In this document: in pieces, positions 19,605 to 44,474 of the stretch
How positions within the stretch are numbered: position 1 is the stretch's first letter
Layout: every line of letters starts with the position of its first letter
Assembly: GCA_044352465.1 (NCBI GenBank)
Contig: JBILDU010000008.1
Location: forward strand, 1 to 51,124
Direction: 5' to 3'
From: Bdellovibrionota bacterium
Lineage (GTDB): Bacteria; Bdellovibrionota_C; UBA2361
DNA length: 51,124 nt
The notes under the pieces: generated by a model
Seen by the model: only the letters and a program-made list of their open reading frames with translations
Told to the model about the DNA's origin: nothing
Databases searched by the model: none
Translations under genes and position numbers: made by a program

Positions 19605-20755
19605 ACGATTCCTCGCGGAGAAAAGAGGTACCGCCGCATACTCACCCCCAGAGCGATCCCGAGACCAACCATCGCCGAGACCATCGCCGAACCTCCATGA
19701 CTCAAGAGAGGTAGCGGAATTCCGACGACGGGGAGAAGTCCGATGACCATACCGACGTTGATAATGGTATGAAAAAACAGCACCGCCGTCACCCCCACGG
19801 TTATGATGCCTCCATACAGATCCTTACTACGGGAGACAACCCGCAGGAGCCGGTAGATCAGTAACACATACAGGAGCAAGACGACGAGGCACCCGAGAAA
19901 GCCCCACTCCTCAGCGACGACCGAGAAAACGAAATCGGTGGTGTGCTCAGGGAGGAACTCAAGTTGGGTCTGTGATCCTTGAAAATATCCCTTACCGAAG
20001 AGCCCCCCAGATCCGACCGCGATCTTCGATTGAATAATGTGATACCCACTCCCCCGCGGATCGGCATCAGGATTAAACAACGTCAGCACCCTCCGCTGCT
20101 GATACGGGTGCAGGGCGTGCCACGCTGGATACGCGACGGTGAGGAGGAGAAGGATACTCACCAGCAGGATCCGGGGGCGTACTCCCATAAAGAGAATCAT
20201 CGCGCCACCAACGATACCAACTGAAAGGGCGCTGCCAAGATCGGGCTGATCGATGATGAGCGCCATCGGCACCCCGACCATCAAGATGGGAGTGAGCAAC
20301 TGACGAAATGTATACCCCCCGGGTAGTGGCGGATTACGAGCGAGATAGCGACCTAGCGCCAGAATCAACCCAAGTTTCATCGGCTCGGCCGGTTGAAGAT
20401 TGAATCCCCCGAGCGATAACCATCGGCGTGACCCATTGACGACCACACCGAAGAGCAGCACCGCGATGAGGAGGAAGATGCAGACCCCATAGAAAACGTA
20501 GGCGTACCGATGCAACACCTGCGACGGGATGGCAAGCGAGACGAGCAGCACCACGAATCCGACCCCCAAGAAGAAAAGCTGCCGACCGAATGCGTGACTC
20601 TGCATCTCGATGGGGAGCCACGGGAATAAGCGGTAATGAGTATCGGGATCGTATCCGGCGCTGTACAGATTCATGAGCCCGAAAGCCGCTATGACGACAA
20701 CAGTCAAGAAGAGGCCCCAATCAAATTGGGCGATGGTACGGCGATCAATCTGCAT
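19601..20755 (-). CDS. rodA: Rod shape-determining SEDS protein RodA
   Basis: GSRRW, LQPAEPMK, QPDLG, GYHIIQSKIAVGSGG, FLPEHTTDFVF, GIPLPLLSHGGS; follows PBP2. Confidence 0.97.
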   Translation of the reverse strand: MQIDRRTIAQFDWGLFLTVVVIAAFGLMNLYSAGYDPDTHYRLFPWLPIEMQSHAFGRQLFFLGVGFVVLLVSLAIPSQVLHRYAYVFYGVCIFLLIAVLLFGVVVNGSRRWLSLGGFNLQPAEPMKLGLILALGRYLARNPPLPGGYTFRQLLTPILMVGVPMALIIDQPDLGSALSVGIVGGAMILFMGVRPRILLVSILLLLTVAYPAWHALHPYQQRRVLTLFNPDADPRGSGYHIIQSKIAVGSGGLFGKGYFQGSQTQLEFLPEHTTDFVFSVVAEEWGFLGCLVVLLLYVLLIYRLLRVVSRSKDLYGGIITVGVTAVLFFHTIINVGMVIGLLPVVGIPLPLLSHGGSAMVSAMVGLGIALGVSMRRYLFSPRGIV

Positions 20756-22601
20756 TTTCGCCCTCCGTCGGCGTGGGATCGGTGGTCACGGTTGCGGGGC
20801 CCGGGGCACCACGACGAAAAAATGCATCCATGACTGCCCGAACCACCGGTGCAGCGGCGGCACCACCGCCACCGCCGTTTTCAACCAGTGCAGCGACAAC
20901 GATCTGAGGGTCCTCTGCCGGTGCGAAGCCGACGAACCAGGCGTGATCTTGGAGATGAGCATGCCCCTTAGATTTTTCGAGGGAAACGACCTGGGCCGTA
21001 CCGGTCTTCCCCCCCACGGCGATGTTAAGATCATTCCCCAGGCGAGCTCGATGCCCGGTGCCGCGCGGATCGGCTACGACCCCCACCAGCGCATCGGTCA
21101 CCAGCTTACGAACTTTGGCGTCGACATTCATCGGTCGGCGCGCCTCCGCGGCTCCCGCTGTCGCCTCACGGTGGACCAGGCGCGGAGTCACCAAGAAGCC
21201 TCCGTTCACGAGCGCTGCGGTCGCATACGCCAGCTGTAGTGGTGTCGTCGTTACCGCCCCCTGACCGATCGCGACCGAAAGGGTCTCTCCGGGGAACCAT
21301 TTTTTGTTCGCCGGATTCTTAAAATAGGCGCGTTTCCATTCGGTCGAGGGAATAATCCCCCGCGCTTCCGTAATCAATTCAAGGCCCGTTGGTCGCCCCA
21401 GACCGAAGCGGAGCGCGTAATCATGAATCCGGTCCACCCCCAACCGTTGGCCGACGACGTAGTAATAGACATCGCACGACTGTACGAGTGAATCGTAGAG
21501 ATCGACCGCACCGTGCCCCGCATGCTTGTGGCACTTAAACGGACGTCCTCCAAAATTATAATATCCGGGGCAAAATATACGCTCCGTGGGATCGATGACC
21601 CGTTCCTGCAGTGCTGCCGCAGCCACCACCATCTTAAAAACTGAGCCGGGAGCAAAGGTGCCCTGAACCGCTCGATTCGTCATGCGCCGAGCCCGACCGG
21701 TGGTAAGCTCACGCCACGCCCCCGGATCAAGCTCAGAGGTAAAGAGATTCGGGTCGAACGCCGGTGCCGAGCTCAAGGCCAGCACCTCTCCGGTTTTCGG
21801 ACTGAGCGCGACCACCGCGCCAGCTTTTCCACGTAGCGCATCATCGGCCGCCCGTTGCGTGGGGAGATCGAGGGTCAACCGCACATCGTGCCCTGCGACC
21901 GCCGGCTCAAAGGAGGCGCCACCGATCCGACCACCGGTGGCGTTCACCACCACAAACTCGACCCCCCGTTTTCCCTGCAATTCCGGTTCAAGGGTTGATT
22001 CAACACCAAACTGCCCGATGACGTCACCCCGTCGATAATTCAAGTAGCGCTCACTGGCGAGTTGTTGCTGCGAGATCTCTCGGATATAGCCGAGCACATG
22101 GGCGGCGCTGTCGCCGTGCGGATAATCTCGCGTGGGAGTGACATTGACGACGATCCCCGGGAGCTCGTAGCGGTGAGCCATCACCCGTGCGACCCGTTCT
22201 CGATCAACATCTTTTAAGATTATCTTCGGCTCATATCGCCGACGCGCCCCTTCGGTACGCAGCCGCGCCTTGAGAGCATCCGGAGATTCCCCGACGAGCT
22301 CGGCCACCCGAGTCAGCACCGCCGCGGGATCGGGGCAGTCCTCAAGGACGAGCTCGATATTAAAAGCGGGACGATTTTTGACCAGCACGGCGCCGTTCCG
22401 ATCGAGGATTGCCCCTCGCGGCGGCGGAACAAACACCGCGCGCAAACGGTTATTCTCCGAACGCTCCCGATAGTGGGCGCCTCGAACAACCTGGAGATAC
22501 CATAAGGTAGCGACGATCAAGAGAAACGCGGTGCAGACGAGGGCAAACGCCACGCGCACCCGAAGATTGATATTCAATCCCCCTCTTTCAGCGCTCGGCA
22601 T
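20745..22601 (-). CDS. mrdA: Penicillin-binding protein 2
   Basis: PPPRGAILDRNG, PGSVFK (SxxK), QSCD, GKTGTAQ, DHAWF. Confidence 0.96.
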   Translation of the reverse strand: MPSAERGGLNINLRVRVAFALVCTAFLLIVATLWYLQVVRGAHYRERSENNRLRAVFVPPPRGAILDRNGAVLVKNRPAFNIELVLEDCPDPAAVLTRVAELVGESPDALKARLRTEGARRRYEPKIILKDVDRERVARVMAHRYELPGIVVNVTPTRDYPHGDSAAHVLGYIREISQQQLASERYLNYRRGDVIGQFGVESTLEPELQGKRGVEFVVVNATGGRIGGASFEPAVAGHDVRLTLDLPTQRAADDALRGKAGAVVALSPKTGEVLALSSAPAFDPNLFTSELDPGAWRELTTGRARRMTNRAVQGTFAPGSVFKMVVAAAALQERVIDPTERIFCPGYYNFGGRPFKCHKHAGHGAVDLYDSLVQSCDVYYYVVGQRLGVDRIHDYALRFGLGRPTGLELITEARGIIPSTEWKRAYFKNPANKKWFPGETLSVAIGQGAVTTTPLQLAYATAALVNGGFLVTPRLVHREATAGAAEARRPMNVDAKVRKLVTDALVGVVADPRGTGHRARLGNDLNIAVGGKTGTAQVVSLEKSKGHAHLQDHAWFVGFAPAEDPQIVVAALVENGGGGGAAAAPVVRAVMDAFFRRGAPGPATVTTDPTPTEGENAD

Positions 22602-22676
22602 AGCTCCTCAATCCCTTACCGTCCCGAGATACCGTTCCCTCAGGACAAAAAAACTCTCGGTATAACCTACCCGCAA

Positions 22677-23204
22677 TCATACGGCGGTCGACCGCAAACG
22701 ACCAGCCGACCCAGTCCGCGGCCGCGGAGCGAGGAGGGTACGGAGAAAAACGAAGAGAAACGGGGCCAGAAACCCATTGAGGAGCGCCTCCAAAAGAGAG
22801 AACGGCACCATCACCGTCACCGCTGGATGGAATTCATACACGAGGGTGAAATAAACGAGGTTGCTCACGATCGAACTAACGAGGGCTGCGATCATCACCG
22901 CGAGTGAAGACTCAACGAAGAGACGTTGCGACAAGGAAGCCAAGATGCCGAACGAAACGACGAACGCGCCCGCCCACGGCCCTACCAAAAGCCCATTCGC
23001 AAAATCAAGTTCCAAACCGAGAAGGAAAGCGAGGGTCGCGCCACGAAAAGACGCCTCAAAAAAACCAAGGAATACCACCAGTATCACTAAAAGATTGGGT
23101 ACTACCCAACTCGGACCGATCTCACGCAGCACCGTTCCTTGGATAAAAATGGCGATAAGTCCGAGAATAAGCACGAGTACCGAACGCCGATTGTCGAGCA
23201 TCAC
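22677..23204 (-). CDS. mreD: Rod shape-determining protein MreD
   Basis: Polytopic membrane protein with PNL and LGL.LD motifs, between mreC and mrdA. Confidence 0.88.
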   Translation of the reverse strand: MMLDNRRSVLVLILGLIAIFIQGTVLREIGPSWVVPNLLVILVVFLGFFEASFRGATLAFLLGLELDFANGLLVGPWAGAFVVSFGILASLSQRLFVESSLAVMIAALVSSIVSNLVYFTLVYEFHPAVTVMVPFSLLEALLNGFLAPFLFVFLRTLLAPRPRTGSAGRLRSTAV

Positions 23205-24049
23205 TTTTGCACCTCCCGCTTGAGTGCGCGCACAGGAGCTGGTGTCGTCACGACAAAAACATCCTCGATTGAGGAAAGCTCCACTGCGGGACGAATTGAG
23301 ATGGACCGGAAAAGCCCCCCATCCTCCCCGATCTCGGTGACCACCCCGAGCAGGAGACCTTTCGGATAGATACCATCGAGGCCCGAAGTGATTACCCGAT
23401 CCCCGATATTAACGGCGGCATCGCGGAGCACGAAACGCCAACGACACACCTCCTTGCCAGTCCCCTCGACGACCCCTTGAGCCCGACTGCCTTGAACGAT
23501 CGCATCGATTCCACTTGAATGATCGGTCATGAGGAGCACTATTGCAGTTGACGGACTTGCGCTCACGACATGGCCCACGACGCCATCGCCCACAAGCACC
23601 GGCATGCCACGGGAGATACCGTCTGAGGTCCCTCGATTTAAAGTGACCGTCTGCACCCAGTTAGTTGCGTCACGTCCCACAACCTGCGCGATAGCCCCTT
23701 TGAGCCGTGTCCGTTCGCCGACCCCAAGGAGTTCGCGCAACCGCTGATTCTCGCTCTCAATCTCGAGGAGCCGGGAGTTGGCCGCTTCGAGCGTCTGAAC
23801 CCGCTGCGTTAACTCCTGATTGGCTGCTTTGACCCCCACGAGTTCGAGGTAACTCGAATAGATACTTTTTACGGAGTTGCTCACGCCGCTTGTGACGGTG
23901 CGAAAAGGGCGCAGCCCCTCGCTCACGAGCGCTGCGCCATCAGAGACGACCTCTGGATTTCTGGCGCTATACGCCGAAAGCGCTAAGGCGCAAAGGAAGT
24001 AAAACAACGCGCCTCCCGCCACTTTCGCTCGCGAATCCAAGACGAGCAT
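23201..24049 (-). CDS. mreC: Rod shape-determining protein MreC
   Basis: TM segment plus coiled coil ENQRLRELL; NRGTSDG; GDRVITSGLDGIYPKGL. Confidence 0.95.
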   Translation of the reverse strand: MLVLDSRAKVAGGALFYFLCALALSAYSARNPEVVSDGAALVSEGLRPFRTVTSGVSNSVKSIYSSYLELVGVKAANQELTQRVQTLEAANSRLLEIESENQRLRELLGVGERTRLKGAIAQVVGRDATNWVQTVTLNRGTSDGISRGMPVLVGDGVVGHVVSASPSTAIVLLMTDHSSGIDAIVQGSRAQGVVEGTGKEVCRWRFVLRDAAVNIGDRVITSGLDGIYPKGLLLGVVTEIGEDGGLFRSISIRPAVELSSIEDVFVVTTPAPVRALKREVQK

Positions 24050-24103
24050 GCGCCCCTTACTTCGAAACCAGAACCGCTCGCATCATCCGCGAGCGCTACC
24101 ACA

Positions 24104-25195
<1,092 letters not shown>

Positions 25196-25399
25196 TCACA
25201 AGCACACCGCGCAGCTTTATCCGATGACTACCCACCGCCACACCGAAGAGGCTCTCAATAGTCGCGAATTTTTAGCGCGGAGACGCTACCACGAGATGGG
25301 CGTCGGAATCGCTAAAAATTATCACGCCCTCTCGAAAAAGCGCAACTCTTACTTTAACTTACTTGAAGAAAGATGCTCGAATCAGAGCCAGGGTTCGGC

Positions 25400-25774
25400 T
25401 TACGCCACCGCCTGAAGCGGATCGGACTGAGGCGCAGCTACCTGAAGCTGCACACGAACCCGCTCGGGAAACGCTGCAACGGCCTGCTCGTCCGCCTGAA
25501 TTTTGAGCTCGCGGATCCGCCCGAGCATAAAAGCGATCTGATCGTCTTGGGACAGCCCCCGGTCGACAAAAATAAACCGTTGGGGTGTGGCGTTTTGGTC
25601 GAAGGCCCGGCACATTCCGCTCACCACTTTCCACCCTGGACCGCGCTTCAACTTTTCGCGCCGAACGGCGTAGCCAGCGGCAGACAGAAGAGAGGACAAC
25701 CCCCTAAGAACGCTCTCTTTTTCAGGATCGCGCGAGACCGATTTAGATTTTTTAAGCGAGCGACTTCCGACCAT
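25400..25774 (-). CDS. Hypothetical protein
   Basis: Globular-looking ORF upstream of mreB (VRREKL.RGPGW...SGMCR...FVDRGL). Confidence 0.7.
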   Translation of the reverse strand: MVGSRSLKKSKSVSRDPEKESVLRGLSSLLSAAGYAVRREKLKRGPGWKVVSGMCRAFDQNATPQRFIFVDRGLSQDDQIAFMLGRIRELKIQADEQAVAAFPERVRVQLQVAAPQSDPLQAVA

Positions 25775-26053
25775 ACAAAAACCCCAGGCGGTTGGCTTGT
25801 TTTTAACTGTGTTTTTGATACTATACGCGGCCGCCCCGGGGTGTAAATACCGAGATTCGTTCGGTTCAAAACCTAATTAGCGGCGCTCGCTTGGCTTGCA
25901 AAAGCTTTGCTGGCGAAAACAGGCGACAGGCGCAGCGCTGGATACGCAGCTTGAAAAAAACGCTGCAAGCGATAACCGGTGGGGCTGCAAAGACGCCGAT
26001 TTTTAAGACTGATTTTTAAGATTCGTTAAGGATCTTTTTTTAAGGACCACGTC

Positions 26054-26503
26054 ATGTCATCCGAGAACGAGACCGCCACCCAGACCGCCGCGCCCCTTCC
26101 GACCGCCACGAACGGTGCGGCGATCGTGGCCGCGATCGAGCAATCGATCCTTCGCTCCGACATCCCGGATTTCCGGGCTGGCGACACCGTTAAGGTGCAC
26201 GCGAAGATCGTTGAAGGCTCAAAGGAGCGTATCCAGATATTTGAAGGGCTCGTGATTCGTCGCCAAAAGGGCAACACCCCGCGCGCGACCTTCACCGTCC
26301 GAAAACTCTCTTACAACATCGGCGTCGAGAGAACGTTCTTGCTCCACAGCCCCCGCATCGACAAGATCGAGCTGGTGAGCCGGGGTGAGGTGCGTCGCGC
26401 TCGGTTGTTCTACCTCCGCGACCTCCGCGGCAAATCCGCCCGCATCCGTAGCGAATTGGTCGAGGCGAGCGCGGCCCCAGCAGTAGCTGCTGCTGCTGAG
26501 TAG
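26054..26503 (+). CDS. rplS: 50S ribosomal protein L19
   Basis: [58 protein letters not shown]. Confidence 0.98.
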
Positions 26504-26551
26504 CATAAGCTGGCGGGGATCTGAGAAGGTCCCCGGCCTAAAAAGACCACG

Positions 26552-26579
26552 AAAAAGCCCCTTCAAAGGGGCTTTTTTT
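26552..26579. terminator. Bidirectional intrinsic terminator
   Basis: AAAAAGCCCCTT-CA-AAGGGGCTTTTTTT between convergent rplS and bactofilin genes. Confidence 0.85.
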
Positions 26580-26693
26580 ATTTCTCAACTTTTTTATTTC
26601 GCAACTCCGCAGAGTCAATTTTTACCGAGCTCTACAGGAGGGAGGCACCCGAGAAAAGCTTCCGAAGGTTAAGGGCGGAGGACTCTCCCCGTC

Positions 26694-27374
26694 CTATGAT
26701 TTCGCTCCCGGCACGCTACGCTGACTCGTCGAGCTCGTCGCGCCCTTCTCCTCAGCTTTGAACACAGGACTCCCCGCGCCACCCCCGCTAGGGGCTACGC
26801 CCTTGACGCTCTCTTTGGAAACTTCCACGGAGATACCCGAGCCACCCGTTGGAAGCTTCTCAGCTATCCGCCCCATGGAACAACGACCGTTAAACAAGCC
26901 CCCCTCCTCCATGGTGAAGATCGGCGCAGCAAAATCAGCCTCCAATCGCCCCCCTTGGAGAACCTCGATCCGGTCGTGGGCCACGACCTTTCCCCTCACG
27001 AGGCCGAGTACGATAAGACTCGCCACCTCAATATCACCTTCAACGGAGCCCCCCGCCCCCACGATAATCGCTTGGGAGGAGTAAATCTCACCGGAAAGCT
27101 TTCCATCGATGCGAACCGGGGTATCAAAACTCAACTTGCCTTGAATAACCGTTCCGGGTCCAAGAGCGGAGCGCAACTTCCCAAATCGGTCGAAACCGAC
27201 CTCAGCAGAGGGAGCAACACCGCCCTGCATCGCTGCCCCGGCTACCCGCGAGGCGAAGCTGTCCCCAGTCAAAGGCGAGGACACGGGCTGATTGCCGAGC
27301 GCTTTGGGCTCGGTCTCGAACGGTGCATTGGGCTTTTGAGACAACTCTTCAGCTTTTTTCTTAAAAAAGGACAC
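26694..27374 (-). CDS. Bactofilin (polymer-forming cytoskeletal protein)
   Basis: LGPGTVIQGKLSF...VRIDGKLSGEI...VEGDI...G.V.GKV...GRLEAD.....MEEGGLFNGRCSM; disordered flanks. Confidence 0.9.
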   Translation of the reverse strand: MSFFKKKAEELSQKPNAPFETEPKALGNQPVSSPLTGDSFASRVAGAAMQGGVAPSAEVGFDRFGKLRSALGPGTVIQGKLSFDTPVRIDGKLSGEIYSSQAIIVGAGGSVEGDIEVASLIVLGLVRGKVVAHDRIEVLQGGRLEADFAAPIFTMEEGGLFNGRCSMGRIAEKLPTGGSGISVEVSKESVKGVAPSGGGAGSPVFKAEEKGATSSTSQRSVPGAKS

Positions 27375-27751
27375 CCCGATACCCCTCCGTCAGCAGACAC
27401 CTAAACTTACTTCACGGCGTCGGCATCATAGCGATGCACGACGAATTAATCCACCGCAAACGCCGCCCTCCTGGGAAGACAACGAGGAAGCCCGGTAGGG
27501 CTCATGAGCTCCACAGACGGCGTCTCGCTCAACGTATGCCCGAGGCAAAGGCCCCCAGGCTCACTCGGCCCAAGCAGAACGAGAGGGGCGCACGCCGGTG
27601 CGGCGGTAAAACTATGAATAACCGGTTGTTAAGGGAGCTTACGGCTGTTAAATTATAAGGTAGACAAGGTGTTTTTGACCTCCGTTACAGCCTCTTACAA
27701 AAAGCACCCCTTTCGGTTTGTCGGTATCGGTTTAAGCGGCATCTTAAGAAC

Positions 27752-29191
27752 ATGGTTCCCGCCTCCTCGAATCACAACCGCTCACCTCGCTCCGCGGCAG
27801 CTCCCGGCTCCCGGGCCGAATTGCTGCCCGCTGGGCTCCGGCGATACCTTGCTCGAATCGCTGTCGTCGGATTTTTTGTTAGCACGGTAGCCGTCCCTAC
27901 CGCTTTTTTCCCAGGCGACGGGAGCGCCGCATCGCCGGATCGGCTGGTGCCGGCGGGGGACCGGAACTCCGGCCGGGTCAATCTCGCTCCCCACCGACTC
28001 CCTCAAAATCGCGCCGGGGAGGCTGGAGACCCCGACCTTCTCGAGTCGCCCCAAGGGGAGAGTGCCCCCACGGTAAGTCGGACCTATCCCGCCCCCAAAC
28101 TCGAGCCGGTGAATCTGGCCTTTCGGTCAAACGGAACCGTCCAAGTCGACAAGATGCCGGAGTTCTCAACGACCTTCGCAGGGAAGGTCGCAGGGATCTC
28201 CCCGCGGAACGACTTTGTCTTTTATTCGCTCGACCCAGACTTACAAAAATTCACCCAGGAACTACTCCGCAAGTCACGCGCCCCCCACGTGGCGGTCGTC
28301 GCGATGGAGCCGGATACCGGTAAGATCTTAGCGATAGCTGAGAAGTCGAATTCGATTGGAGATCTCTCTCTTCACACCGGATTTCCGGCCGCCTCGATCT
28401 TCAAGATTGTGACCGCCGCCGCCGCTCTGGAGGAAGGGAGCGTAGCCCCCGGTTCACAGATTCGCTTTCGCGGGGGCAATTACACCCTCAATCAGTGGAA
28501 CTACAATCCGATCCCTAAAAAAGATAGCCGATCGATGTCGCTGTATGAGGCGTTGGCGAAGTCCTGCAACCCGGTGTTTGGTCGGGTAGCTCTAAAGTAC
28601 CTCAGTCCCGATGTCCTACGCCAATATGCCGGATACTTCGGCTTTAACACGCCACTTGGGTTTGACTTCCCGCTGCCCCGAAGCGCCGCGGTCATCCCCG
28701 AATCCGACTACGAACTCAGCCGTACCGCCGCAGGTTTTGGCGACGTGAAGCTGAGCCCGATTCATGCGGCGACATTGATGGCGGGCGTTGCGAACGAGGG
28801 TATCCTGCCGCGCCCCTCGCTTATTGAGCGGGTGGTATCGCGGGATGGTGCCGTGATGTACCAGTCGCGCCCCTCATTCATTCAGCGACTCGTTCGTCCC
28901 GAAACCGCCGACTCACTCATGCGGATGATGGAATATACCACGACGATCGGGACGTCCCGCCGCGAGTTCATGAAGAAAAACCGCCCCGTTCTCCCCGGGA
29001 TACGGGTCGCGGCGAAAACCGGCACGTTGAGCGGAAAGAACCCCGTTGGGGTGAACAACTGGTTCGTTGCCGCGGCCCCGATCGAAAATCCCCGGATAGC
29101 GCTCTCCGTGATCGTCGTCAATCCGCAAGGGATCGACACCAAGGCGTCACACCTTGGCCGCCTGATTATCCAAAAGTATCTCGGTCGTTAA
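27752..29191 (+). CDS. Penicillin-binding protein, transpeptidase domain (start approximate)
   Basis: TM segment; AASIFK (SxxK), KSCN (SxN), AKTGT (KTG); no transglycosylase or full pedestal domain evident. Confidence 0.85.
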   Translation: MVPASSNHNRSPRSAAAPGSRAELLPAGLRRYLARIAVVGFFVSTVAVPTAFFPGDGSAASPDRLVPAGDRNSGRVNLAPHRLPQNRAGEAGDPDLLESPQGESAPTVSRTYPAPKLEPVNLAFRSNGTVQVDKMPEFSTTFAGKVAGISPRNDFVFYSLDPDLQKFTQELLRKSRAPHVAVVAMEPDTGKILAIAEKSNSIGDLSLHTGFPAASIFKIVTAAAALEEGSVAPGSQIRFRGGNYTLNQWNYNPIPKKDSRSMSLYEALAKSCNPVFGRVALKYLSPDVLRQYAGYFGFNTPLGFDFPLPRSAAVIPESDYELSRTAAGFGDVKLSPIHAATLMAGVANEGILPRPSLIERVVSRDGAVMYQSRPSFIQRLVRPETADSLMRMMEYTTTIGTSRREFMKKNRPVLPGIRVAAKTGTLSGKNPVGVNNWFVAAAPIENPRIALSVIVVNPQGIDTKASHLGRLIIQKYLGR

Positions 29192-29255
29192 CGCGGCCGC
29201 CCCTGCCGAATCTGCAGGTTGTGACGCGGCGCGCGACAGAAAGTTCTCGACTTGC

Positions 29256-31076
29256 TCACGGCGCACGCGGAAGCGCTATTGAAACGCTCGTCCCAGCGTC
29301 GCTCGAAGAGACCGTAATCTCCCCGCCGTGGCGACGCACGATCTCCTGCGCCATCGGAAGAGCCAATCCGTATCCATCCCCCCGGCCGGTCTTATGCTCA
29401 AAGATATCGCCGGTCGCTATCCCCGGGCCGTTATCGGAGATAGTAATAACACCCTGTGGGCGAGCGAGCGCCGTGGCATCGCCTGGGGCGATTTCATCTC
29501 GCACCGCAATCGTCACCACCCCGGCGTTTCGCCCTCCCAACGACTCAATTCCGTTTAGTCCAAGAGCAAAGAGGGCCTCAGCGAGGGCGAACTCATCGCC
29601 GAGAAGCCGCAGACTCGGCGGCCCTTCGAAGGTCACACCGACCCCCGGCGGAGCTATCGCGGCGAGCCGTTTGGTAAGATCCTGTCCAAGCGCGACCAGG
29701 TCGAGGGGATCGCGCCGAAGCTCACCGGGCCGCACATAGCCACGCAGCTTTCGACTGAGTGCCTCCCCCCGTTCGATAGACTGGGCGATAAGCGCCAAAG
29801 GCTGCTGAAAAGGGTTCTCTGCCGGAAAAGCCTTACGTACCCGTGCGTTGATGATGTCGAGACTCCCCTGGATCGCGCCCAAGAAATTATTGATATCGTG
29901 GCCGATCTTGGCCGAAACAGCACCGATCGACTCGAGGACCTGCGTATGAACTAAACGGTCCTTCGGATCGAAGGGCTTGGCCCGCGCTCCCCGCTCCCCA
30001 TCTACAGGGGCTATCGGTCCGGTCGTCGTGGTAATGTAATCAACCGCTCCGAGGAGATCGCTCGCCACATAATCGGGGGTGACATCGAACTTTTTATCCG
30101 TACCCCCGATGCCGGTGCGAACAAGAACTGCCCGACAACCCGCATTTTTAGCGAGCATTAAGTCGCCGGTCATATCCCCAACAACAAAGCTCCGATCGAG
30201 ATCGATGTTCAAATCACGCACCGCTCGATCGATAAACTCGGTCCCCGGCTTACGGCACCGACACCGGTCGTTATCGGTGTGCGGACAAAAATAAACTCGG
30301 TCAAAGGTCACACCGAAGGCACGCGCTTGCTTCAAAAGCTCCCGATTGAGGACAAAAAAATCTTCTTTCGAGAAGTACCCCATCCCGATACCGGGCTGGT
30401 TTGTCACCACGATCAGGGCAAATCCGTGTTCTTTGAGCCGCTTGAGCGCCTCAAGAGCTCCCGGAATTAATCGAAATTTCTCGACCTCGTGAATATATTC
30501 GACGTGCTCGTTCAGCGTCCCATCCCGATCGAGAAAGACCGCGGGACGGGGAGTGGGATAAGGCGAGGCAACCGACTCCGCGCTGTACCGCCCGACGACC
30601 CGTTCGATGATTCCCGTGGTGCCATGGCCATCCGCGAAAGGGACGAGAACGACCTTCCCACCGTACGACTCGACGATTCGAGCCGAGCTTAGCTTCGAAC
30701 GATCGTAATCCCCCGCCTTGAGATACACATCAGGCTTTAATATCTCGATGTTGGCGTTGTTGTTTTTCTCATCAAAGATAAAGACAAAGTCAACGCTGTG
30801 CAGTCCAGCAACCACTCGGGCGCGGTCACTCTCGGGGCAGATGGGACGAAGGTCGCCTTTATTCTCACACACCGACCGGTCGGAGTTTACGCCGACGACT
30901 AAGACGTCACACTCCCGCCGGGCGCTCTCGAGATACGCCACGTGTCCCGGATGCAGAATATCGAAGACACCAGAGGTAAAGCCGATCTTCGTCCCGGCGC
31001 TACGGAGAACCCGTAACCGGTCAGCGAGCGCTTCCCGTTCCTTTATCTTAGCTTCATGCAATGCCGCAGTATCCAT
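29256..31076 (-). CDS. Fusion: HldC/RfaE-II heptose-1-P adenylyltransferase + GmhB heptose-bisphosphate phosphatase + histidine kinase (HisKA-HATPase)
   Basis: GVFDILHPGH (H42), GVNSD..V...KG..RP; FLDRDGT (D183), VVTNQ, CPH...C.CRKPG, VGD; GHDINN (H393), LGLNGIES, ISDNGPGI, GYGLAL...IVRRHGG; single uninterrupted frame. Confidence 0.88.
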   Translation of the reverse strand: MDTAALHEAKIKEREALADRLRVLRSAGTKIGFTSGVFDILHPGHVAYLESARRECDVLVVGVNSDRSVCENKGDLRPICPESDRARVVAGLHSVDFVFIFDEKNNNANIEILKPDVYLKAGDYDRSKLSSARIVESYGGKVVLVPFADGHGTTGIIERVVGRYSAESVASPYPTPRPAVFLDRDGTLNEHVEYIHEVEKFRLIPGALEALKRLKEHGFALIVVTNQPGIGMGYFSKEDFFVLNRELLKQARAFGVTFDRVYFCPHTDNDRCRCRKPGTEFIDRAVRDLNIDLDRSFVVGDMTGDLMLAKNAGCRAVLVRTGIGGTDKKFDVTPDYVASDLLGAVDYITTTTGPIAPVDGERGARAKPFDPKDRLVHTQVLESIGAVSAKIGHDINNFLGAIQGSLDIINARVRKAFPAENPFQQPLALIAQSIERGEALSRKLRGYVRPGELRRDPLDLVALGQDLTKRLAAIAPPGVGVTFEGPPSLRLLGDEFALAEALFALGLNGIESLGGRNAGVVTIAVRDEIAPGDATALARPQGVITISDNGPGIATGDIFEHKTGRGDGYGLALPMAQEIVRRHGGEITVSSSDAGTSVSIALPRAP

Positions 31077-31549
31077 TGAGCGCCTTAAAGAGAGCTGCCA
31101 TTAAGAGAGCCGGTCGTACCCCGAGGCCGGGCTTATCCGATATAATATGCCGATAAAAAGTGCCCCACCGACTTTTTAACCGACCGGTGCGTACCTCCGT
31201 CATCGGTAGCCACCCTACGGGATTCCGACCTGAAAATTCCCGATGGGGCTATCATCGCGTGAGACGAGCGAGAGAACCACCGCTATGAAGTTCTGAGCAG
31301 TTTTCCATCTGCGGACCTCTTCAGCGGCCCCCTAGCGGCCTATAGAATGCCCTACCGTTACTTCAGTTGACAAGCCAACGTGGTTAGGACAAGGACAAAG
31401 TCCTCATCAACACCTCAATCAGACGGAAGGGTCGGCGTTCGATCGGCGACGCTGACAGCACCTTGAAAAGGGATGTTTTTTGAACTCCCGCAAAAATTGT
31501 GGTTGGTTAGAAGTCGTAACCCTTAAAAACCTTACTTCCCGAGATCCGG

Positions 31550-32683
31550 ATGATACAGCGCGACGTCATTAAATCACTCGAACACCTTATCGTGGAGGCG
31601 CTCCTCCCTCCTGAGGCGCGAACTCAGTACGCGGCGGGCGATATCGCCCATGCCATATTGAAGCCGTGCGCCGAGGCGATCGCACGGATGTCAGCGCGTT
31701 ATGTCTCCCGCACCGCCATCGCCCCTCTGTCGGTCGAGGAAGCGGTGGCCTACGCCCTCTACTACACCCCGGTAAACGCCGCAAAGATCTGGCACCTTCT
31801 TGGGCGCATCCCCCCTGAAGTCTGGAAGCGTCCTCATCTCACGATCCTCGACTACGGTTGCGGCCCCGCGACCGCCTCGCTCGCGGCTTCGTTCATGGCT
31901 CCTGCGGCGGAGTTCCTCGCAGTCGATACCGTTGGGCCGATGCGACAGGTGGCGCACCGACTCCTGGAGAGCCGCGCGCGCACGGCCCCGCTCCGTTGGA
32001 AAGTTGCCGAAGAATTCTCCGGCACATTTGATGTGATTATCGCGGCGAACGTGCTCAACGAGCTATCACCGCTCTCCGCGAGGAACCTGATTGATCGCTT
32101 TATCGGTGCGCTCTCTCCCGATGGGGTACTCCTAACGCTCGAACCAGCGCTCCTTGAGACCACCCGAAATCATATGGCGCTCCGTGATGAACTCCTCGCC
32201 CGCCATCACGGCGTTGTGCCTCTGTTTCCATGTACCCACTCCGCACCGTGTCCGATGTTATCTCTCTCCCCAACGGAATGGTGCCACGCGCCGCTCGTAT
32301 GGGAGGAACCACGCCTGTTACGCCAGCTCGATGAACTCACCGGATTTAACAAGCACCGGCCCAAATTTTCAGCGTTTATATTTACCCGCACCGACACCGC
32401 ACCGCCGGGCATTCGGATTGTGCGTGGAGCGGAAAAGACGAACCGGGGAGCCTCAGCTCTCGGCTGTGGACCCAATTTTTTTGGGGAGCTCACGCTTTTA
32501 AAACGGAACAAAACTGAGGAGAATCGAGTTTTTCTCAAAGTCGATACCTATGATCGCATTGAGGTGATCCCACCTCCACAGGCCGGACTGATTGAGGCTC
32601 ACGCACGGGTTGAAATCCGCGACGACGCACGTGCGGAGAAAAGTGCTGCGGTGGGGCTCTCAACGGATATCATCTCCCGATAA
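31550..32683 (+). CDS. Rsm22/METTL17-like SAM-dependent methyltransferase
   Basis: AYALYY.P.N, ILDYGCGPAT, DVIIAANVLNE, LEPA, PCTH.APCP...WCH. Confidence 0.75.
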   Translation: MIQRDVIKSLEHLIVEALLPPEARTQYAAGDIAHAILKPCAEAIARMSARYVSRTAIAPLSVEEAVAYALYYTPVNAAKIWHLLGRIPPEVWKRPHLTILDYGCGPATASLAASFMAPAAEFLAVDTVGPMRQVAHRLLESRARTAPLRWKVAEEFSGTFDVIIAANVLNELSPLSARNLIDRFIGALSPDGVLLTLEPALLETTRNHMALRDELLARHHGVVPLFPCTHSAPCPMLSLSPTEWCHAPLVWEEPRLLRQLDELTGFNKHRPKFSAFIFTRTDTAPPGIRIVRGAEKTNRGASALGCGPNFFGELTLLKRNKTEENRVFLKVDTYDRIEVIPPPQAGLIEAHARVEIRDDARAEKSAAVGLSTDIISR

Positions 32684-32806: not shown

Positions 32807-34021
32807 TCATCGCGGAGGCTTGCCGGTCTCATTGGGGGCCGCGGCGATACTTGCAGCGCTGAGCGTCGCGCGATATCGCTCGGCGCAACCTTCCCACGAG
32901 CTCTCGGCTACATGGGCGTGCGCCACATCAACCATCTGTTGGTACCTCACTCGATCGCTGAGGAGCTCACCCAACCGCCGGGCGACAGCGGCAGAATCGT
33001 CGAGGGCGTCCAAGATTCCACTGACATTGTCTCGCACCAGCTCACGATGGGCCGGAATATCCGAGAGTACACACACGACTCGAGCCAGCATCGCCTCGAG
33101 CACTCCGTTCGGCCGCCCCTCGAATTCCGCCGCCGAGAGATAGGCCGCCGCCCCGGCGAGATAGCTCGAGATCTCCCGCGGGTCGACTAACCCCGCAAAT
33201 CGAACTCGATCGGTGACCCCCAAAATGCGCGCTCGCTCGACGAGTTCCGCGTGATATCCCGCTTCACCGATCCGACCGCACAGAACGAGGTCATAGTCGA
33301 TGAGCGCACCCGCCGCCAGGATATCGAAGAGCACGGCGATACGCTTGCGCGGGATGATCGACCCACAAAAGAGGAGGTACCGCCCCTTCCGTAGCCCGCG
33401 CTCAGTGAGAAAACGGAGCAGATCCTCGCGCGGAGGCGGGGTATAGGTGATCCCGTTATTGATTACCTCGGTCGATCGGGCAAGCTCAGGAATCGCAGCG
33501 ATCGCCTCCTCGCGTAAAGCTGCACTCACGGTGACGACGCGCCGAGCGTTCTTGAGGATTCGACCCGAGAGCCACGGGAAGACCCGTAGAAACTTGATAT
33601 CTCCTCCCCGCAATACGACGACGTAAGGGGTTCGTCTCGCCCAAAAGAGGAGGCCGGCGACCACTCCGGCAAAGAGCCAATTCGCTAGGATAACATCCGC
33701 CGTCTGCAACCGTCGCCCGGCCCGCCAGAGCATACCACAGAGCAGCCCCGGTATCTGGAGGATAAGCGCGGGGCGGGCGCGGATATTCGGCGCGATGCCA
33801 AGACCGAAGGCGAGCTGGCCACGCGCGCAGATGCCGTACCGATAGCGAGAGATCGTCACGGCTCCGCGCTGCTCGAGAGACGGCTCAGTCCCATCGGCGG
33901 GAACAATAACGGTGACCTCTTGATAATGAGGCGCCAGCTTCTCAACGAGGCGTTCCACAAAGATCCCCGCATCGTCCCCAAGCCACCGTGGATACGATGT
34001 TGTCAGAACGCCCAACTTCAT
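32807..34021 (-). CDS. GT4-family glycosyltransferase
   Basis: MKLGVLTTSYPR start overlapping the upstream stop (ATGA); PRKR; EGRPNGVLEAM (EX7E). Confidence 0.9.
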   Translation of the reverse strand: MKLGVLTTSYPRWLGDDAGIFVERLVEKLAPHYQEVTVIVPADGTEPSLEQRGAVTISRYRYGICARGQLAFGLGIAPNIRARPALILQIPGLLCGMLWRAGRRLQTADVILANWLFAGVVAGLLFWARRTPYVVVLRGGDIKFLRVFPWLSGRILKNARRVVTVSAALREEAIAAIPELARSTEVINNGITYTPPPREDLLRFLTERGLRKGRYLLFCGSIIPRKRIAVLFDILAAGALIDYDLVLCGRIGEAGYHAELVERARILGVTDRVRFAGLVDPREISSYLAGAAAYLSAAEFEGRPNGVLEAMLARVVCVLSDIPAHRELVRDNVSGILDALDDSAAVARRLGELLSDRVRYQQMVDVAHAHVAESSWEGCAERYRATLSAASIAAAPNETGKPPR

Positions 34022-35118
34022 TGGCGCACTCCCGGCAAAACTCCGAGACCACTGAGCACACCCTTCCACCGAGTAATGATTTTTTCAGGGTCAAACCGCA
34101 TCGCAACCTCTCGCGCATGCTCCCCTAAACGTTGGCGGAGAGCCTCATCCGACATGAGGGGACGGAGCGCCTCGGCGATTCCGCCCGTAAAAACGATCCC
34201 GCTTACCCCTGAGACGACGATATCCTTAATCGCTCCGGGGCAATCTCGCGCGACCACGGCCCTTCCCGCAGCCATCGCCTCACACAACGTATTAGGAAAC
34301 CCCTCATACTGGGATGAGAGGACAAAGATATCCGCTTCATGGAGACGCTGCGGAAGATCCGTTACCTCGCCCGGAAGGAATACCCGATCGCCGAGCCCCA
34401 GGACGCAGACAAGGTGTTCGAGGCGCACCCGTTCCGGTCCGGCTCCGTAGATGAAGAGATCCCAGTCCGGAAACTCCACCGTCAATCGAGCAAACTCGGT
34501 GATAAGTTCCGCAAAGCCTTTCTTTTCCACTAAACGGCCCGCACCACAGAGGATTCGCCGTTCCCGCGGAGAGGTAGGCGAGGATGCCGGAACGTGGAAG
34601 ATTGGATTCGGTATCGTTACTGCCCGATCCCGCAGCCGCGGGGGCAAAAGCGCGGCAAACCGATCGCTTTGCAACACAATTTTCCGGCTCAGTGAAAAAG
34701 CCAAAGGACGGAGCGCTCTTAAAATAAGTGACGGCCGGTGGAGTGTCAGATGATCGCGCACCGCAGTAACGACCGGAATTCCGGTACCGTAAAGTGCGAG
34801 CGGGGTCACCACATTCGCACCGGTGACGAACGTCATGGCTACCCCGACATGATGCTCCTGAATGAGACGGCGCAAGCGGAGAAGCCCGGCGCACCCTCCC
34901 CAGAGCCCGATTCTCCCTAACGGGCCGCACAGCACCGTCCGACGCACGACCCGGTCATCCAGGGGAAAAAAAGATGGCTCCGTAATACCATCAAGGGTAA
35001 TGAGGAGCACCCGCTCGCCCGCCGCAACCCAATCGTTGGCGAGCCAGGTAACGATGCGCTCAGCACCACCACACCGAAGAGAAGGGATGATCAGAGCTAT
35101 CGTCGTTAGGTGTTTCAT
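34018..35118 (-). CDS. GT4-family glycosyltransferase (AmsD/PglH-like)
   Basis: GGAER, IPNP, GRLVEKKGF, SQYEGFPNTLCEAMAAG. Confidence 0.92.
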   Translation of the reverse strand: MKHLTTIALIIPSLRCGGAERIVTWLANDWVAAGERVLLITLDGITEPSFFPLDDRVVRRTVLCGPLGRIGLWGGCAGLLRLRRLIQEHHVGVAMTFVTGANVVTPLALYGTGIPVVTAVRDHLTLHRPSLILRALRPLAFSLSRKIVLQSDRFAALLPPRLRDRAVTIPNPIFHVPASSPTSPRERRILCGAGRLVEKKGFAELITEFARLTVEFPDWDLFIYGAGPERVRLEHLVCVLGLGDRVFLPGEVTDLPQRLHEADIFVLSSQYEGFPNTLCEAMAAGRAVVARDCPGAIKDIVVSGVSGIVFTGGIAEALRPLMSDEALRQRLGEHAREVAMRFDPEKIITRWKGVLSGLGVLPGVRQ

Positions 35119-35230
35119 GGAGGACTACCTTCGAGCGCGTCACAACATAATCCCTGAGGGCGAAGACGGATCTATGTTGTTACCCGCTCTTACTCTAAAA
35201 TGGCTCCACCCCCCCCTTCAAGGACGGAGT

Positions 35231-36388
35231 ATGACAGTCCCCCACCGGATCGCATTTATTATCGACGCCCTCGTGCTCGGTGGCGCGCAGCGCTCGCTCG
35301 TTGCCCTTGCGAACGCCTTGGCCCACCGGGGCGCCGAGGTCCATCTGATCACGTTCGAAGCACCAGCCCCCCGCCCCCCCCAGCTTCGTCTCGCACCAGC
35401 GATTCAGCGACACGCTCTCGGAACCCACCCCAGAGAGTCTGCCCGCCTCCTGACCCCGCTGATGCTGCTACGTACGCACCGAGCGCTCCGTCGAACTATC
35501 CATAATCTCGCGCCGACCTGCGTGGTGAGCTTTCTCGATGAGGTGAACCTCATGACGCTGCTCGCCCTACCACGGGAGAGGACGACGCTACGGGTGATCG
35601 TCAGCGAACGCTCCTTTCCGGGAGTAAGTTTCAAAAAACGGTACGATCCCCTGGGGCTCCTCCCCTTCGTCGGTCGTGCGGCGCGTCGTTATCTCTATCC
35701 GCGCGCTGACTCGGTCATCACCTTAACGGAGCGAGGGGCGGAGTTCCTTCGCTCAGAGGGTCTCACCAACGTCGCCGTTATCCCGAATCCCGTCCCGCCC
35801 CCTCCTCCGGTTGAGCACCGGACCGAACCGGAACAGGTTATCGTGGCGCTCGGGCGACTCGCCCCCGAGAAGCGCTTTGATAGACTGATCGAGGCGTTCG
35901 CCGTCGTAGCGCCTCATTTTCCAGCTTGGAGGGTACGGATCTACGGTGAGGGTCCTCTCAGAGACGTGCTTACCCGCCACATAGAGCGGCGGCAACTCAC
36001 CGACCGAGTTACTCTCTGCGGTGCAAGCGCCGCACCGCATGAGGTGCTCGCCAGGCGTCCGGTCTTCGCCCTCACCTCCGATGTCGAGGGTTTCCCGGTC
36101 GCTCTCACTGAGGCCATGGCGAGTGGATGCGCCGTGGTTGCTACCGACTGCCCTACCGGTCCGGGAGAGCTCATTTCTCACGGAGAGGACGGCCTCCTCG
36201 TGCGCTCCCGTGACCCGCTGGTCTTTGCGGAAGCGCTCAGTGCAATAATGTCATCGGCGGCGCTGCGCCGCCGTCTCGGCGAATCCGCCCAACGGATCAC
36301 CGACCGCTTCCCCACCGATATGATTTTCGACAGGTGGTGGGTAGAGGTCTCCGCCCCACCGTTAAAGCGCGAGTGCTCCATTCAATAA
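35231..36388 (+). CDS. GT4-family glycosyltransferase (AmsD/PglH-like)
   Basis: ATG at 35231 with GGAG RBS; GGAQR, VSER, IPNP, GRLAPEKRFD, SDVEGFPVALTEAMASG. Confidence 0.9.
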   Translation: MTVPHRIAFIIDALVLGGAQRSLVALANALAHRGAEVHLITFEAPAPRPPQLRLAPAIQRHALGTHPRESARLLTPLMLLRTHRALRRTIHNLAPTCVVSFLDEVNLMTLLALPRERTTLRVIVSERSFPGVSFKKRYDPLGLLPFVGRAARRYLYPRADSVITLTERGAEFLRSEGLTNVAVIPNPVPPPPPVEHRTEPEQVIVALGRLAPEKRFDRLIEAFAVVAPHFPAWRVRIYGEGPLRDVLTRHIERRQLTDRVTLCGASAAPHEVLARRPVFALTSDVEGFPVALTEAMASGCAVVATDCPTGPGELISHGEDGLLVRSRDPLVFAEALSAIMSSAALRRRLGESAQRITDRFPTDMIFDRWWVEVSAPPLKRECSIQ

Positions 36389-44471: not shown

Positions 44472-44474
44472 CGC

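Follow-up and report, generated by a model that had tools for sequence, protein, structure and literature searches.

Why should two enzymes of ADP-heptose synthesis end in the core of a histidine kinase, and what would such a coupling do? The question is raised by a single gene in the window, that is, the whole stretch of 51,124 nucleotides that was analysed, from an uncultured freshwater bacterium whose order has no cultured members. The LPS inner core receives its heptose from ADP-heptose, which is also a bacterial signature that is sensed by host immunity; to our knowledge, the regulation of its supply in bacteria is poorly known.

One open frame with three modules

The gene is a 606-aa open frame at 29256..31076 on the reverse strand, with its ATG at 31074-31076 and its TGA at 29256-29258, and the three modules that the initial annotation had read in it (HldC, GmhB and a kinase core) are all present with their motifs. 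The PBP gene at 27752-29191 (forward strand) is convergent with it and the methyltransferase gene at 31550-32683 (forward strand) divergent from it, and from these neighbours the fusion gene is probably monocistronic. A promoter and terminator scan of 29000-31700 gave signals that were no more frequent than in shuffled sequences.

An assembly chimera, or a frameshift masking two genes, might give rise to a frame of this kind, and some relatives do have split forms (see below). The probability of such an artifact is nonetheless negligible, as both module junctions are crossed by contigs that three other studies had assembled from their own runs: X6 spans 29271-30318 and X7 spans 29557-30772, both with 0 differences, and X9 spans 29181-31300 with 51 substitutions and no indel. 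In these contigs neither a misassembly nor a stop is seen at the junction around 29940-30050, where either had been thought conceivable. Moreover, a 99%-identical 606-aa protein is present on 2 contigs, and the same three modules are fused in the same-genus genome G001 (80% identity) and found in dozens of other assemblies. On the basis of the open frame and the bridging contigs we annotate the whole ORF as an HldC-GmhB-DHp/CA fusion.

The enzyme modules and their pathway

The first module (aa 24-160; 30597..31007, reverse strand) had been described as a nucleotidyltransferase of the RfaE domain II type with an HxGH motif, and in this HMM, motif and fold agree. The NCBIfam model rfaE_dom_II (TIGR02199) is by far its best-scoring family (E 5.9e-50, 168.9-170.3 bits), at a score that does not reach the equivalog cut-off of 181.5, and Pfam CTP_transf_like matches aa 34-128. 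The HxGH motif reads H42-P-G44-H45 (H42 at 30951-30953, H45 at 30942-30944), with both histidines kept in 81/81 of the family alignment; the second HldC motif, xSTT, is GTT here (S152G, in 10 of 156 rows). In Foldseek the module matches Burkholderia pseudomallei HldC (5xf2) with a TMt of 0.85-0.90 at 42-44% identity.

The second module (aa 177-350; 30027..30548, reverse strand) is of the GmhB type, a HAD-IIIA heptose 1,7-bisphosphate 7-phosphatase. It scores 167.5 bits (E 2.2e-49) against NF006506, under the cut-off of 178, and is above the cut-offs of both HAD-IIIA TIGR01656 (157.4 bits versus 84.15) and TIGR01662 (114.7 versus 44.6). The motifs attributed to this phosphatase (DRDG, TNQ, CxH...CxC and GD) could all be located: D183-R-D185-G, whose nucleophile D183 lies at 30528-30530, T225-N-Q, K276, G300-D301 and D305, with D183, D185, T225, K276, D301 and D305 present in 81/81 of the family alignment. 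In E. coli GmhB, Zn is bound by a CxH...CxC loop; the putative Zn loop of the fusion protein, C264-x-H266...C272-x-C274, is kept at its four positions in 144, 146, 143 and 152 of 156 rows, respectively. The Foldseek match with E. coli GmhB (3l8e) has a TMt of 0.88 at 36% identity. It is on scores just below the equivalog cut-offs, invariant catalytic motifs and folds matching E. coli GmhB and B. pseudomallei HldC that we identify the two enzymes.

The fusion gene carries the only rfaE_dom_II match and the only HAD-IIIA match in a genome that is 94.9% complete. It is true, as had been noticed, that the window holds neither gmhA nor a heptose kinase gene, and both occur elsewhere in the genome. 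HldA (rfaE_dom_I, 340.9 bits) is a separate frame on contig C21, adjoining two GT9 heptosyltransferases; HldD is present with 378.6 bits; and a GmhA-like gene scores above the cut-off of SIS_2 (87.2 bits) and, on the 118 aa submitted, 136.8 bits against TIGR00441, below its cut-off of 209.45. GmhA, HldA, HldD and the heptosyltransferases all lie on contigs other than the window's. With the sole HldC and the sole GmhB in one protein and the rest of the pathway on other contigs, the enzyme part would be a housekeeping one. The fusion gene is, as far as sequence can tell, the cell's only GmhB and HldC. Its product is predicted to convert heptose 1,7-bisphosphate into ADP-D,D-heptose, the final two reactions, and to supply an ADP-L,D-heptose and heptosyltransferase pathway whose other genes are all present elsewhere. 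The first module should thus be of the D-glycero-beta-D-manno-heptose 1-phosphate adenylyltransferase type, since it is the sole candidate for this adenylyl transfer in a genome that has GmhA, HldA, HldD and GT9 genes.

Fusion among ADP-heptose enzymes is in itself familiar from E. coli HldE (HldA-HldC, NF008454), and the HldC part of our protein aligns to HldE 320-471. However, HldE joins a PfkB heptose kinase to HldC, whereas the partners of HldC here are GmhB and a GHKL histidine-kinase core, with HldA separate on another contig and the PfkB heptose-7-phosphate kinase domain absent from the fusion polypeptide. The idea that the GHKL domain substitutes for the heptose kinase is ruled out by the PfkB-type HldA beside the heptosyltransferases. 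Closer to the fusion are two-domain HldC-GmhB proteins, with the same enzyme order and motifs and 48-59% identity but without the C-terminal DHp-CA; they are found in distant lineages too. Their public labels are 'HAD-IIIA family hydrolase' or 'rfaE ... nucleotidyltransferase chain/domain'.

A transmitter without a classical sensor

The kinase core had been recognized by the motifs GHDINN, N-box, DNGPG and GYGLAL, and these were all located, with HATPase_c above and HisKA below its Pfam cut-off. The DHp helical hairpin (aa 379-447; 29736..29942, reverse strand) is delimited by predicted helices at 371-416 and 424-446 and by alignment with the CckA structure 5idj; it carries the H-box GHDINN, in which the candidate acceptor H393 (29898-29900) aligns with the CckA H-box and is followed by D394 at +1 and N397 at +4. 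HisKA gives it 13.9 bits, where 26.9 is the cut-off. The CA domain, of the ATP-binding GHKL type (aa 456-603; 29268..29711, reverse strand), is assigned from the HATPase_c match at aa 493-605 (47.7 bits versus 26.4) and from its boxes: N508 (29553-29555) in the N-box, G1 D548-N-G-P-G (D548 at 29433-29435) and G2 G568-Y-G-L-A-L (G570 at 29367-29369). N508 is conserved in 81/81, D548 in 80/81 and G570 in 79/81, and in the AF2 model of the kinase part a helical hairpin is followed by an alpha/beta CA domain. Profile scan and hydropathy agree with the earlier statement that the protein has no TM segment, PAS/GAF or receiver domain: no such domain gave a profile match in the 606 aa, and the largest 19-residue Kyte-Doolittle mean is 1.25, with no TM segment.

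Two peculiarities had suggested a defective kinase. The ATP lid is indeed short, by 8 residues compared with most relatives (alignment gaps of 3 and 5), and the FxPFFSTK/F-box is absent; the alanine in G2, on the other hand, is no defect, as the family mostly has serine at this column (S 57, G 12, T 7 and A 3 of 81). Together with the low HisKA score and the loss of the module in many relatives, the lid might be taken to mean that the module is an inert remnant, a pseudokinase on its way to loss in what is simply a bifunctional GmhB/HldC enzyme. We consider this very unlikely: every catalytic residue is kept, the X9 variant has no indel across the gene in spite of its substitutions, and comparison of the window's kinase part (G000) with its same-genus orthologue in G001 gives a dN of 0.176 and a dS of 1.651, which is purifying selection and not neutral decay. 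From its retained residues we infer that the transmitter of the fusion protein works as a dimeric histidine kinase/phosphatase, or can at least bind ATP.

The nearest solved kinase core, in sequence (E 7e-12) as well as in fold (Foldseek rank 1, 28% identity), is the DHp-CA of CckA (5idj/5idm), with an H-box of the HDxNN type. CckA itself is a PAS hybrid kinase that is anchored in the membrane and carries a receiver; the fusion protein is without TM, PAS and receiver, and its lid is shorter. CckA is reported to be a bifunctional kinase/phosphatase with c-di-GMP as its switch (PMC5026420); the title of PDB entry 5idm places the c-di-GMP site at the CckA CA domain.

Enzyme and kinase are joined by an unconserved linker that is predicted to be disordered (aa 352-378; 29943..30023, reverse strand). 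The pLDDT is <50 at aa 359-375, and across 88 fused forms the linker is 22-43 aa long with a mean pairwise identity of 0.10-0.14. PAS and HAMP kinases have continuous signalling helices instead, and a linker that is both disordered and unconserved would make a poor allosteric conduit. A predicted complex of the enzyme part (aa 1-356) with the kinase part (366-606) gave an ipSAE of 0.00 twice, a value that is uninformative on docking either way.

As for a partner of the transmitter, the earlier observation that the window has no response regulator was borne out by a receiver profile scan, in which none of the 62 matches of the genome falls on the window's contig. Neither a response regulator nor an Hpt gene is present in the window, or at 12 related loci up to a distance of about 5 kb. 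Close paralogues of the kinase are absent from the genome, where it is most similar to hybrid kinases that are 27-31% identical.

Distribution of the enzyme-kinase linkage

We have followed the linkage through the one uncultured order to which the source belongs (91 genomes, 21 families). The two-domain HldC-GmhB (about 350 aa) occurs in every genome of the order with a match, and at least 27 of the 91 genomes have the kinase fused to it. In 4 genomes (G002, G003, G004 and G019) the kinase is instead a separate adjacent gene, a sensor-less one of 247-261 aa directly downstream of the HldC-GmhB gene, and the metagenome locus L143 has this split form too. A separate kinase gene in relatives had been set down beforehand as evidence against the fusion; such genes do exist, but the adjacency of the split forms is better read as support for a functional link, of the Rosetta-stone type, between the modules. 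Fused or adjacent, the linkage spans 5 of the 21 families. No kinase beside the enzyme gene was found in 24 related genomes checked, and the presence of the kinase on the enzyme tree needs at least 12 changes. The stand-alone kinases (247-262 aa) form seven clusters at 50% identity, two of them being the split kinases of G004 and G019, and all seven keep GHDxNN. Thus the coupling of heptose enzyme and kinase in this lineage is real and evolutionarily recurrent, and the kinase is an accessory specific to this lineage, which has long accompanied HldC-GmhB in the order but can be dispensed with.

A contig scan with the whole-protein alignment gave one three-domain locus (L013) among the best 80, which were mostly GmhB or HldC-GmhB. 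When metagenomes were scanned with the stand-alone kinases, using a generic H-box pattern, the best 80 included 3 loci of the family, one fused (L141), one split (L143) and one too short (L142), the remainder being ordinary kinases of at most 32% identity without the enzyme. Larger forms with an added receiver or HldA were looked for among the best 150 kinase-core relatives, and the 13 candidates scanned were ordinary PAS, GAF, Cache or CHASE (hybrid) kinases.

The nearest kinases from outside the order are small PAS-like cytoplasmic ones (P0123, P0126, P0128 and similar, uncharacterized proteins), none of which was found within it. Their DHp-CA is of one subfamily with that of the fusion protein (34% identity over 235 aa) and has the same DHp signature, GHDxNNxLG plus YVRPG. 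In these proteins of about 340-390 aa, however, a PAS-like N-terminus of about 110 aa replaces HldC-GmhB. That an enzyme stands where the nearest outside kinases have a PAS domain suggests that the enzyme module is the input or the anchor of the kinase.

It might be argued that the two parts are only co-expressed or tethered without allostery, a constitutive sensor-less kinase/phosphatase having its amount track an envelope-precursor gene and its stoichiometry or location fixed by the linkage. A flexible and unconserved linker, natural split forms and frequent gain and loss of the module would all fit, as would the faster evolution of the kinase part (mean identity in the His group 0.34-0.40, versus 0.57-0.59 for the enzyme part). 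We regard this as quite unlikely, since a linkage kept in 5 of 21 families implies more than chance co-expression, and the module is under purifying selection.

Loss of the acceptor histidine

The caveat that the module may be a pseudokinase turned out to be apt for the family, and less so for the protein that occasioned it: the acceptor histidine is missing in 41 of the 88 fused forms (R 17, A 15, G 3, K 2, Y 2, T 1 and Q 1), whereas the fusion protein and its six closest relatives keep it (7/7 of the clade). One genus includes species with His, with Tyr (G012, GYDFNT) and with Arg, as well as kinase-less ones. In the 41 His-less forms the ATP site and the hairpin are still conserved (N508 1.00, D548 0.98, G400, L403 and Q411 1.00), as is a large part of the DHp surface, although these forms are mostly one genus-level clade, so that the high conservation comes partly from relatedness. 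The one His-less pair tested (G097 versus G107) has a dN of 0.142 and a dS of 1.721, hence a dN/dS of about 0.08, indicating purifying selection. A kinase module that lacks its histidine in so many forms, yet keeps its ATP site and, in the pair tested, is under purifying selection, points to a family-wide function other than the canonical His phosphorelay; to judge from these alignments, what has been conserved family-wide is something other than phosphotransfer.

The pseudokinase DivL offers a parallel. Its C-terminal structure (4q20) is among the Foldseek fold matches, and some family members likewise lack the acceptor His, one of them with the Tyr that DivL has (G012, P0055), while the module is kept. 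DivL differs in having PAS domains rather than enzymes, and the window's protein still has its His. DivL is a reported precedent for reversed signalling, with the kinase module as input (PMC4211667). By analogy, the role of the DHp-CA could be purely regulatory: it would dimerize HldC-GmhB, bind an adenine nucleotide or, like DivL, a phosphorylated receiver, and thereby tune ADP-heptose synthesis, the output of ADP-heptose being what is regulated, with no need for transfer from H393. The variable acceptor site beside an unchanging ATP site and DHp, the low dN/dS of the His-less pair and the mixture of forms within one genus are in keeping with such a reversed flow. Nevertheless, the usual grammar of kinases puts the input N-terminal and the transmitter C-terminal, the H-box is complete in the window's protein and in all stand-alone forms, and the conservation of the His-less forms owes something to their relatedness; on balance, reversed flow is possible but doubtful.

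What the coupling may do

Beyond anatomy and distribution, every reading of the fusion is one that we infer. The reading towards which we tentatively incline, at rather less than even confidence, is that the enzyme module is the input or anchor of the kinase, and that the signal put out would depend on how much of the ADP-heptose-making enzyme there is or on what state it is in. The flexible linker would attach a cytoplasmic transmitter of the CckA/NtrB type to HldC-GmhB; the transmitter, with H393, D394, N397, N508, G1 and G2 all kept, would be competent as a kinase/phosphatase or at least in binding ATP, and would act on an unlinked receiver protein; and the enzyme module would fill the place that the PAS sensor has in the nearest outside kinases.

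The more specific proposal of the initial annotation, that the enzyme domains are the sensor of a phosphorelay, is partly supported by the recurrent link and the sensor position of the enzyme. Against it are the nature of the linker, the loss of the histidine, the 24 genomes without the module and the lack of a linked regulator; metabolite gating of a phosphorelay is a conjecture. In its full form, a transmitter with no classical sensor would be gated by a biosynthetic enzyme: binding of substrate or product to GmhB/HldC would decide between kinase and phosphatase output, or the product ADP-heptose would vie with adenine nucleotides for their pocket in the CA domain, and the flux of LPS-core precursor would be read by the phosphorelay. 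This we consider unlikely. A bolder variant starts from the likeness of HAD active-site chemistry to that of CheY: phosphoryl groups may pass back and forth between H393 and D183, the nucleophile of GmhB, the enzyme domain being the 'receiver'.

Trigger enzymes are metabolic enzymes that also serve a regulatory pathway as its sensor, and the known ones mostly target transcription factors or RNA. The fusion protein, with its enzyme module as kinase input, would in effect couple a trigger enzyme to a two-component transmitter. Concept papers on trigger enzymes and protein-activity sensing are PMC6978683 and PMC7083601. The initial annotation knew of no pathway-enzyme fusion that carries a kinase transmitter, and our literature search returned no description of the HldC-GmhB-histidine kinase architecture, nor of an enzyme covalently linked to a two-component transmitter.

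The natural link between enzyme and kinase, whether covalent or operonic, provides a handle both on feedback between envelope-precursor synthesis and signalling and on how an enzyme might serve a sensor-less transmitter as input. The family forms a compact natural series that, inside a single order and even a single genus, runs from an active-looking kinase through a His-less pseudokinase and a split gene to outright loss, and it is thus useful for studying how a kinase module is repurposed.

Architecture of the HldC-GmhB-kinase protein

The gene at 29256-31076 on the minus strand is one open frame of 606 amino acids. Profile searches place an HldC adenylyltransferase (rfaE domain II) at residues 24-160 (168.9 bits, below the cut-off of 181.5), GmhB at residues 177-350 (167.5 bits, below the cut-off of 178; the HAD-IIIA subfamily model gives 157.4 with a cut-off of 84.15) and a kinase core of the VirA/AtoS/CckA type at residues 373-606, on which Pfam HATPase_c scores 47.7 against a cut-off of 26.4 and HisKA 13.9, under its cut-off of 26.9. 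An AlphaFold2 model with 40 homologues as input (mean pLDDT 83, pTM 0.42) predicts three domains with confidence and the linkers between them (166-172 and 359-375) with low confidence; the third domain is a helical hairpin (371-416, 424-446) followed by an alpha/beta domain. Foldseek matched each module separately, to B. pseudomallei HldC (5xf2, TMt 0.85-0.90, 42-44% identity), E. coli GmhB (3l8e, TMt 0.88, 36%) and, at rank 1 for the kinase, the CckA DHp-CA module (5idj, 28%); none of the solved chains among the matches listed covers more than one module. We found no hydrophobic segment in the protein, and the profile search gave no match to PAS, GAF or receiver domains. All the motifs named in the initial annotation are present, and the shortened ATP lid it described is indeed 8 residues shorter between G1 and G2 than in most relatives; the alanine in G2 can no longer be called a defect, this column being mostly serine across the family. 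The second motif by which HldC binds its nucleotide (aa 150-154, about 30615-30629) is G-T-T in the window's clade, against S-T/S-T/S in the family; S152G occurs in 10 of 156 rows.

The domain junctions, where misassembly had initially been allowed for, are bridged by contigs from runs that belong to three other studies: those from X6 (29271-30318) and X7 (29557-30772) show 0 differences, and that from X9 (29181-31300) shows 51 substitutions and 0 indels. A 606-aa protein of 99% identity is on record from 2 contigs, and an 80%-identical orthologue with all three modules is encoded in G001, a genome from the same genus. There is thus virtually no chance that the fusion is an assembly artefact. 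In the short stretch that separates the converging PBP and fusion genes, the X9 contig, which comes from a strain 97-98% identical, is longer by about 60 bases: its record positions 785 to 845 map to window 29192 back to 29181.

Predicted function of HldC and GmhB

The catalytic residues of HldC and GmhB are invariant in 81/81 three-domain homologues. The window's contig (C162) belongs to a 3.13 Mb genome, 94.9% complete, in which the fusion is the sole rfaE_dom_II match and the sole HAD-IIIA match. Other pathway genes lie elsewhere: a PfkB-type HldA on contig C21 (340.9 bits, cut-off 345), following two GT9 heptosyltransferases; a GmhA-like gene on C107; and HldD on C159 (378.6 bits, above its cut-off). 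Since the genome has no second HldC or GmhB match and encodes these other steps, the enzyme part is predicted from sequence to be the housekeeping source of ADP-heptose. We also considered the GHKL domain as a substitute heptose kinase, which is not needed because HldA is encoded elsewhere.

Distribution and origin of the kinase

Our phylum set comprised 124 genomes, 91 of them (21 families) from the window's uncultured order. In the sister orders two genes encode HldC (about 160 aa) and GmhB (about 200 aa); in the window's order the two are fused in every genome giving a match. Full-length matches show the kinase to be fused in 25 genomes; G097 and G107 add two more, with frames of 591 and 592 aa and a diverged kinase, and G088 and G106 are fragmentary. 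The kinase is split off as the gene directly downstream in four genomes (G002, G003, G004 and G019) and at metagenome locus L143, the junction being an in-frame TGA in G003, a 10-nt gap in G004 and a 4-nt overlap in G019; fused and split forms together occur in 5 of the 21 families. No kinase gene was found flanking the enzyme gene in 24 genomes checked. The G003 locus (L096; C269:125-1507), in a genome of the window's family, has enzyme and kinase in the same frame with a single TGA between them, which may reflect a genuine split, read-through or an error in sequencing; its contig stops within the kinase.

In a FastTree phylogeny of the enzyme part (156 rows: 120 metagenome proteins, 35 genomes and the window), which has SH-like support only and several long branches flagged, kinase-bearing and kinase-less rows interleave, and kinase presence changes at least 12 times among rows of known state. 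When the kinase part by itself was searched against the whole library, stand-alone kinases of 247-262 aa were found in seven clusters at 50% identity, each of which retains GHDxNN and a lid of full length; the split kinases of G004 and G019 account for two of these clusters. The nearest kinases from outside the order are cytoplasmic and 340-390 aa long; they share the DHp signature, and their N-terminus, about 110 aa, is weakly PAS-like. Within the order these proteins match only the fused and split modules. More distant relatives are ordinary PAS/GAF/CHASE hybrid kinases, and the window's genome holds no close paralogue. The 7339-aa protein P0124, matched by the kinase query in 19 separate stretches (query residues 63-117), looks like a giant repeat protein with a short DHp-like segment. 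For the sequencing runs that contain the gene, the recorded source is lake water, freshwater or an unspecified metagenome, and the architecture is so far confined to one uncultured freshwater lineage.

Loss of the acceptor histidine

The kinase is dispensable and its acceptor histidine is often lost. Among 88 fused forms, the H393 column holds His in 47 and another residue in 41 (R 17, A 15, G 3, K 2, Y 2, T 1, Q 1), while the +1 position is D/E in 88/88 and the +4 position N/T in 77/88; N508, D548 and G570 are kept in 81, 80 and 79 of an 81-protein set. The His-less rows imply about 5 changes on the tree and fall mostly in one genus-level clade, a genus that also includes His-bearing, Tyr-bearing and kinase-less species. 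A role as phosphatase only, or in binding a receiver, would be consistent with the retention of the nucleotide site in His-less forms and of the +1 acidic and +4 N/T residues, which would serve the phosphatase reaction. It is also possible, if rather doubtful, that the kinase module works for the enzyme, whether by dimerising it, by sensing nucleotide or by sensing a receiver as DivL does. In two fused forms (G012, at L097/L108, and P0055) Tyr takes the place of the acceptor (GYDFNT), as it does in DivL, the Caulobacter pseudokinase; P0051, a 90%-cluster neighbour, has His there.

Rough Nei-Gojobori estimates, with dS saturated at 1.4-1.8 and hence rough ratios, gave for the His-less pair G097/G107 dN 0.142 and dS 1.721 in the kinase (enzyme: 0.054 and 1.444), and for genomes G000/G001 dN 0.176 and dS 1.651 (enzyme: 0.102 and 1.769). 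In the one His-less pair compared, these values point to purifying selection on the kinase module, not decay. The window's own clade (7 rows) keeps His throughout; an inert kinase remnant in the window's organism seems distinctly improbable. Evolution has been faster in the kinase than in the enzymes, and the linker, 22-43 aa long, shows next to no conservation (identity 0.10-0.14). Tethering of enzyme and kinase without allostery is a further, unlikely reading.

Genomic neighbourhood

The fusion gene is apparently monocistronic: a transpeptidase-type PBP gene converges on it from one side, and on the other an Rsm22-like methyltransferase gene points away from it. A stretch of mreB, rplS, bactofilin, PBP, HldC-GmhB, then methyltransferase, M48 peptidase, galU-like, LOG and RNase HII recurs in relatives. 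The window also carries mreBCD, PBP2 and rodA, a bactofilin, three GT4 glycosyltransferases, galU and TviB/TviC-like genes. Its cell-shape block (18480-29191: rodA, PBP2, mreD, mreC, mreB, rplS, bactofilin and an extra transpeptidase-only PBP) is conserved in the window's taxonomic order and adjoins the HldC-GmhB gene, as it does at the related loci L107, L108, L109, L111 and L113; envelope-glycan precursor supply is syntenic with the elongation machinery in several families of the order. Two GT4 frames on opposite strands, 34018-35118 (-) and 34862-36388 (+), share about 250 bases in the gene list; the true start of the latter is probably downstream of the overlap, because its Pfam match begins near residue 130-140. 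At 43191-45527, TviB-like (480 bits) and TviC-like (390 bits) genes, both under their equivalog cut-offs, adjoin asnB and suggest that a UDP-N-acetyl-aminouronic acid is made for use in a surface polysaccharide.

No receiver domain was found on the window's contig or within about 5 kb of 12 related loci; the genome has 62 receiver matches. We found no published description of the architecture in the literature searched, and public names are limited to 'HAD-IIIA family hydrolase', 'rfaE ... nucleotidyltransferase' and 'hypothetical'. All three modules come from known families, and an enzyme acting as sensor is a known concept. The coupling of HldC-GmhB to one kinase lineage is real and recurrent. 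As a tentative reading, the housekeeping enzyme part would occupy the sensor position of an active kinase/phosphatase, which would talk to an unlinked receiver.
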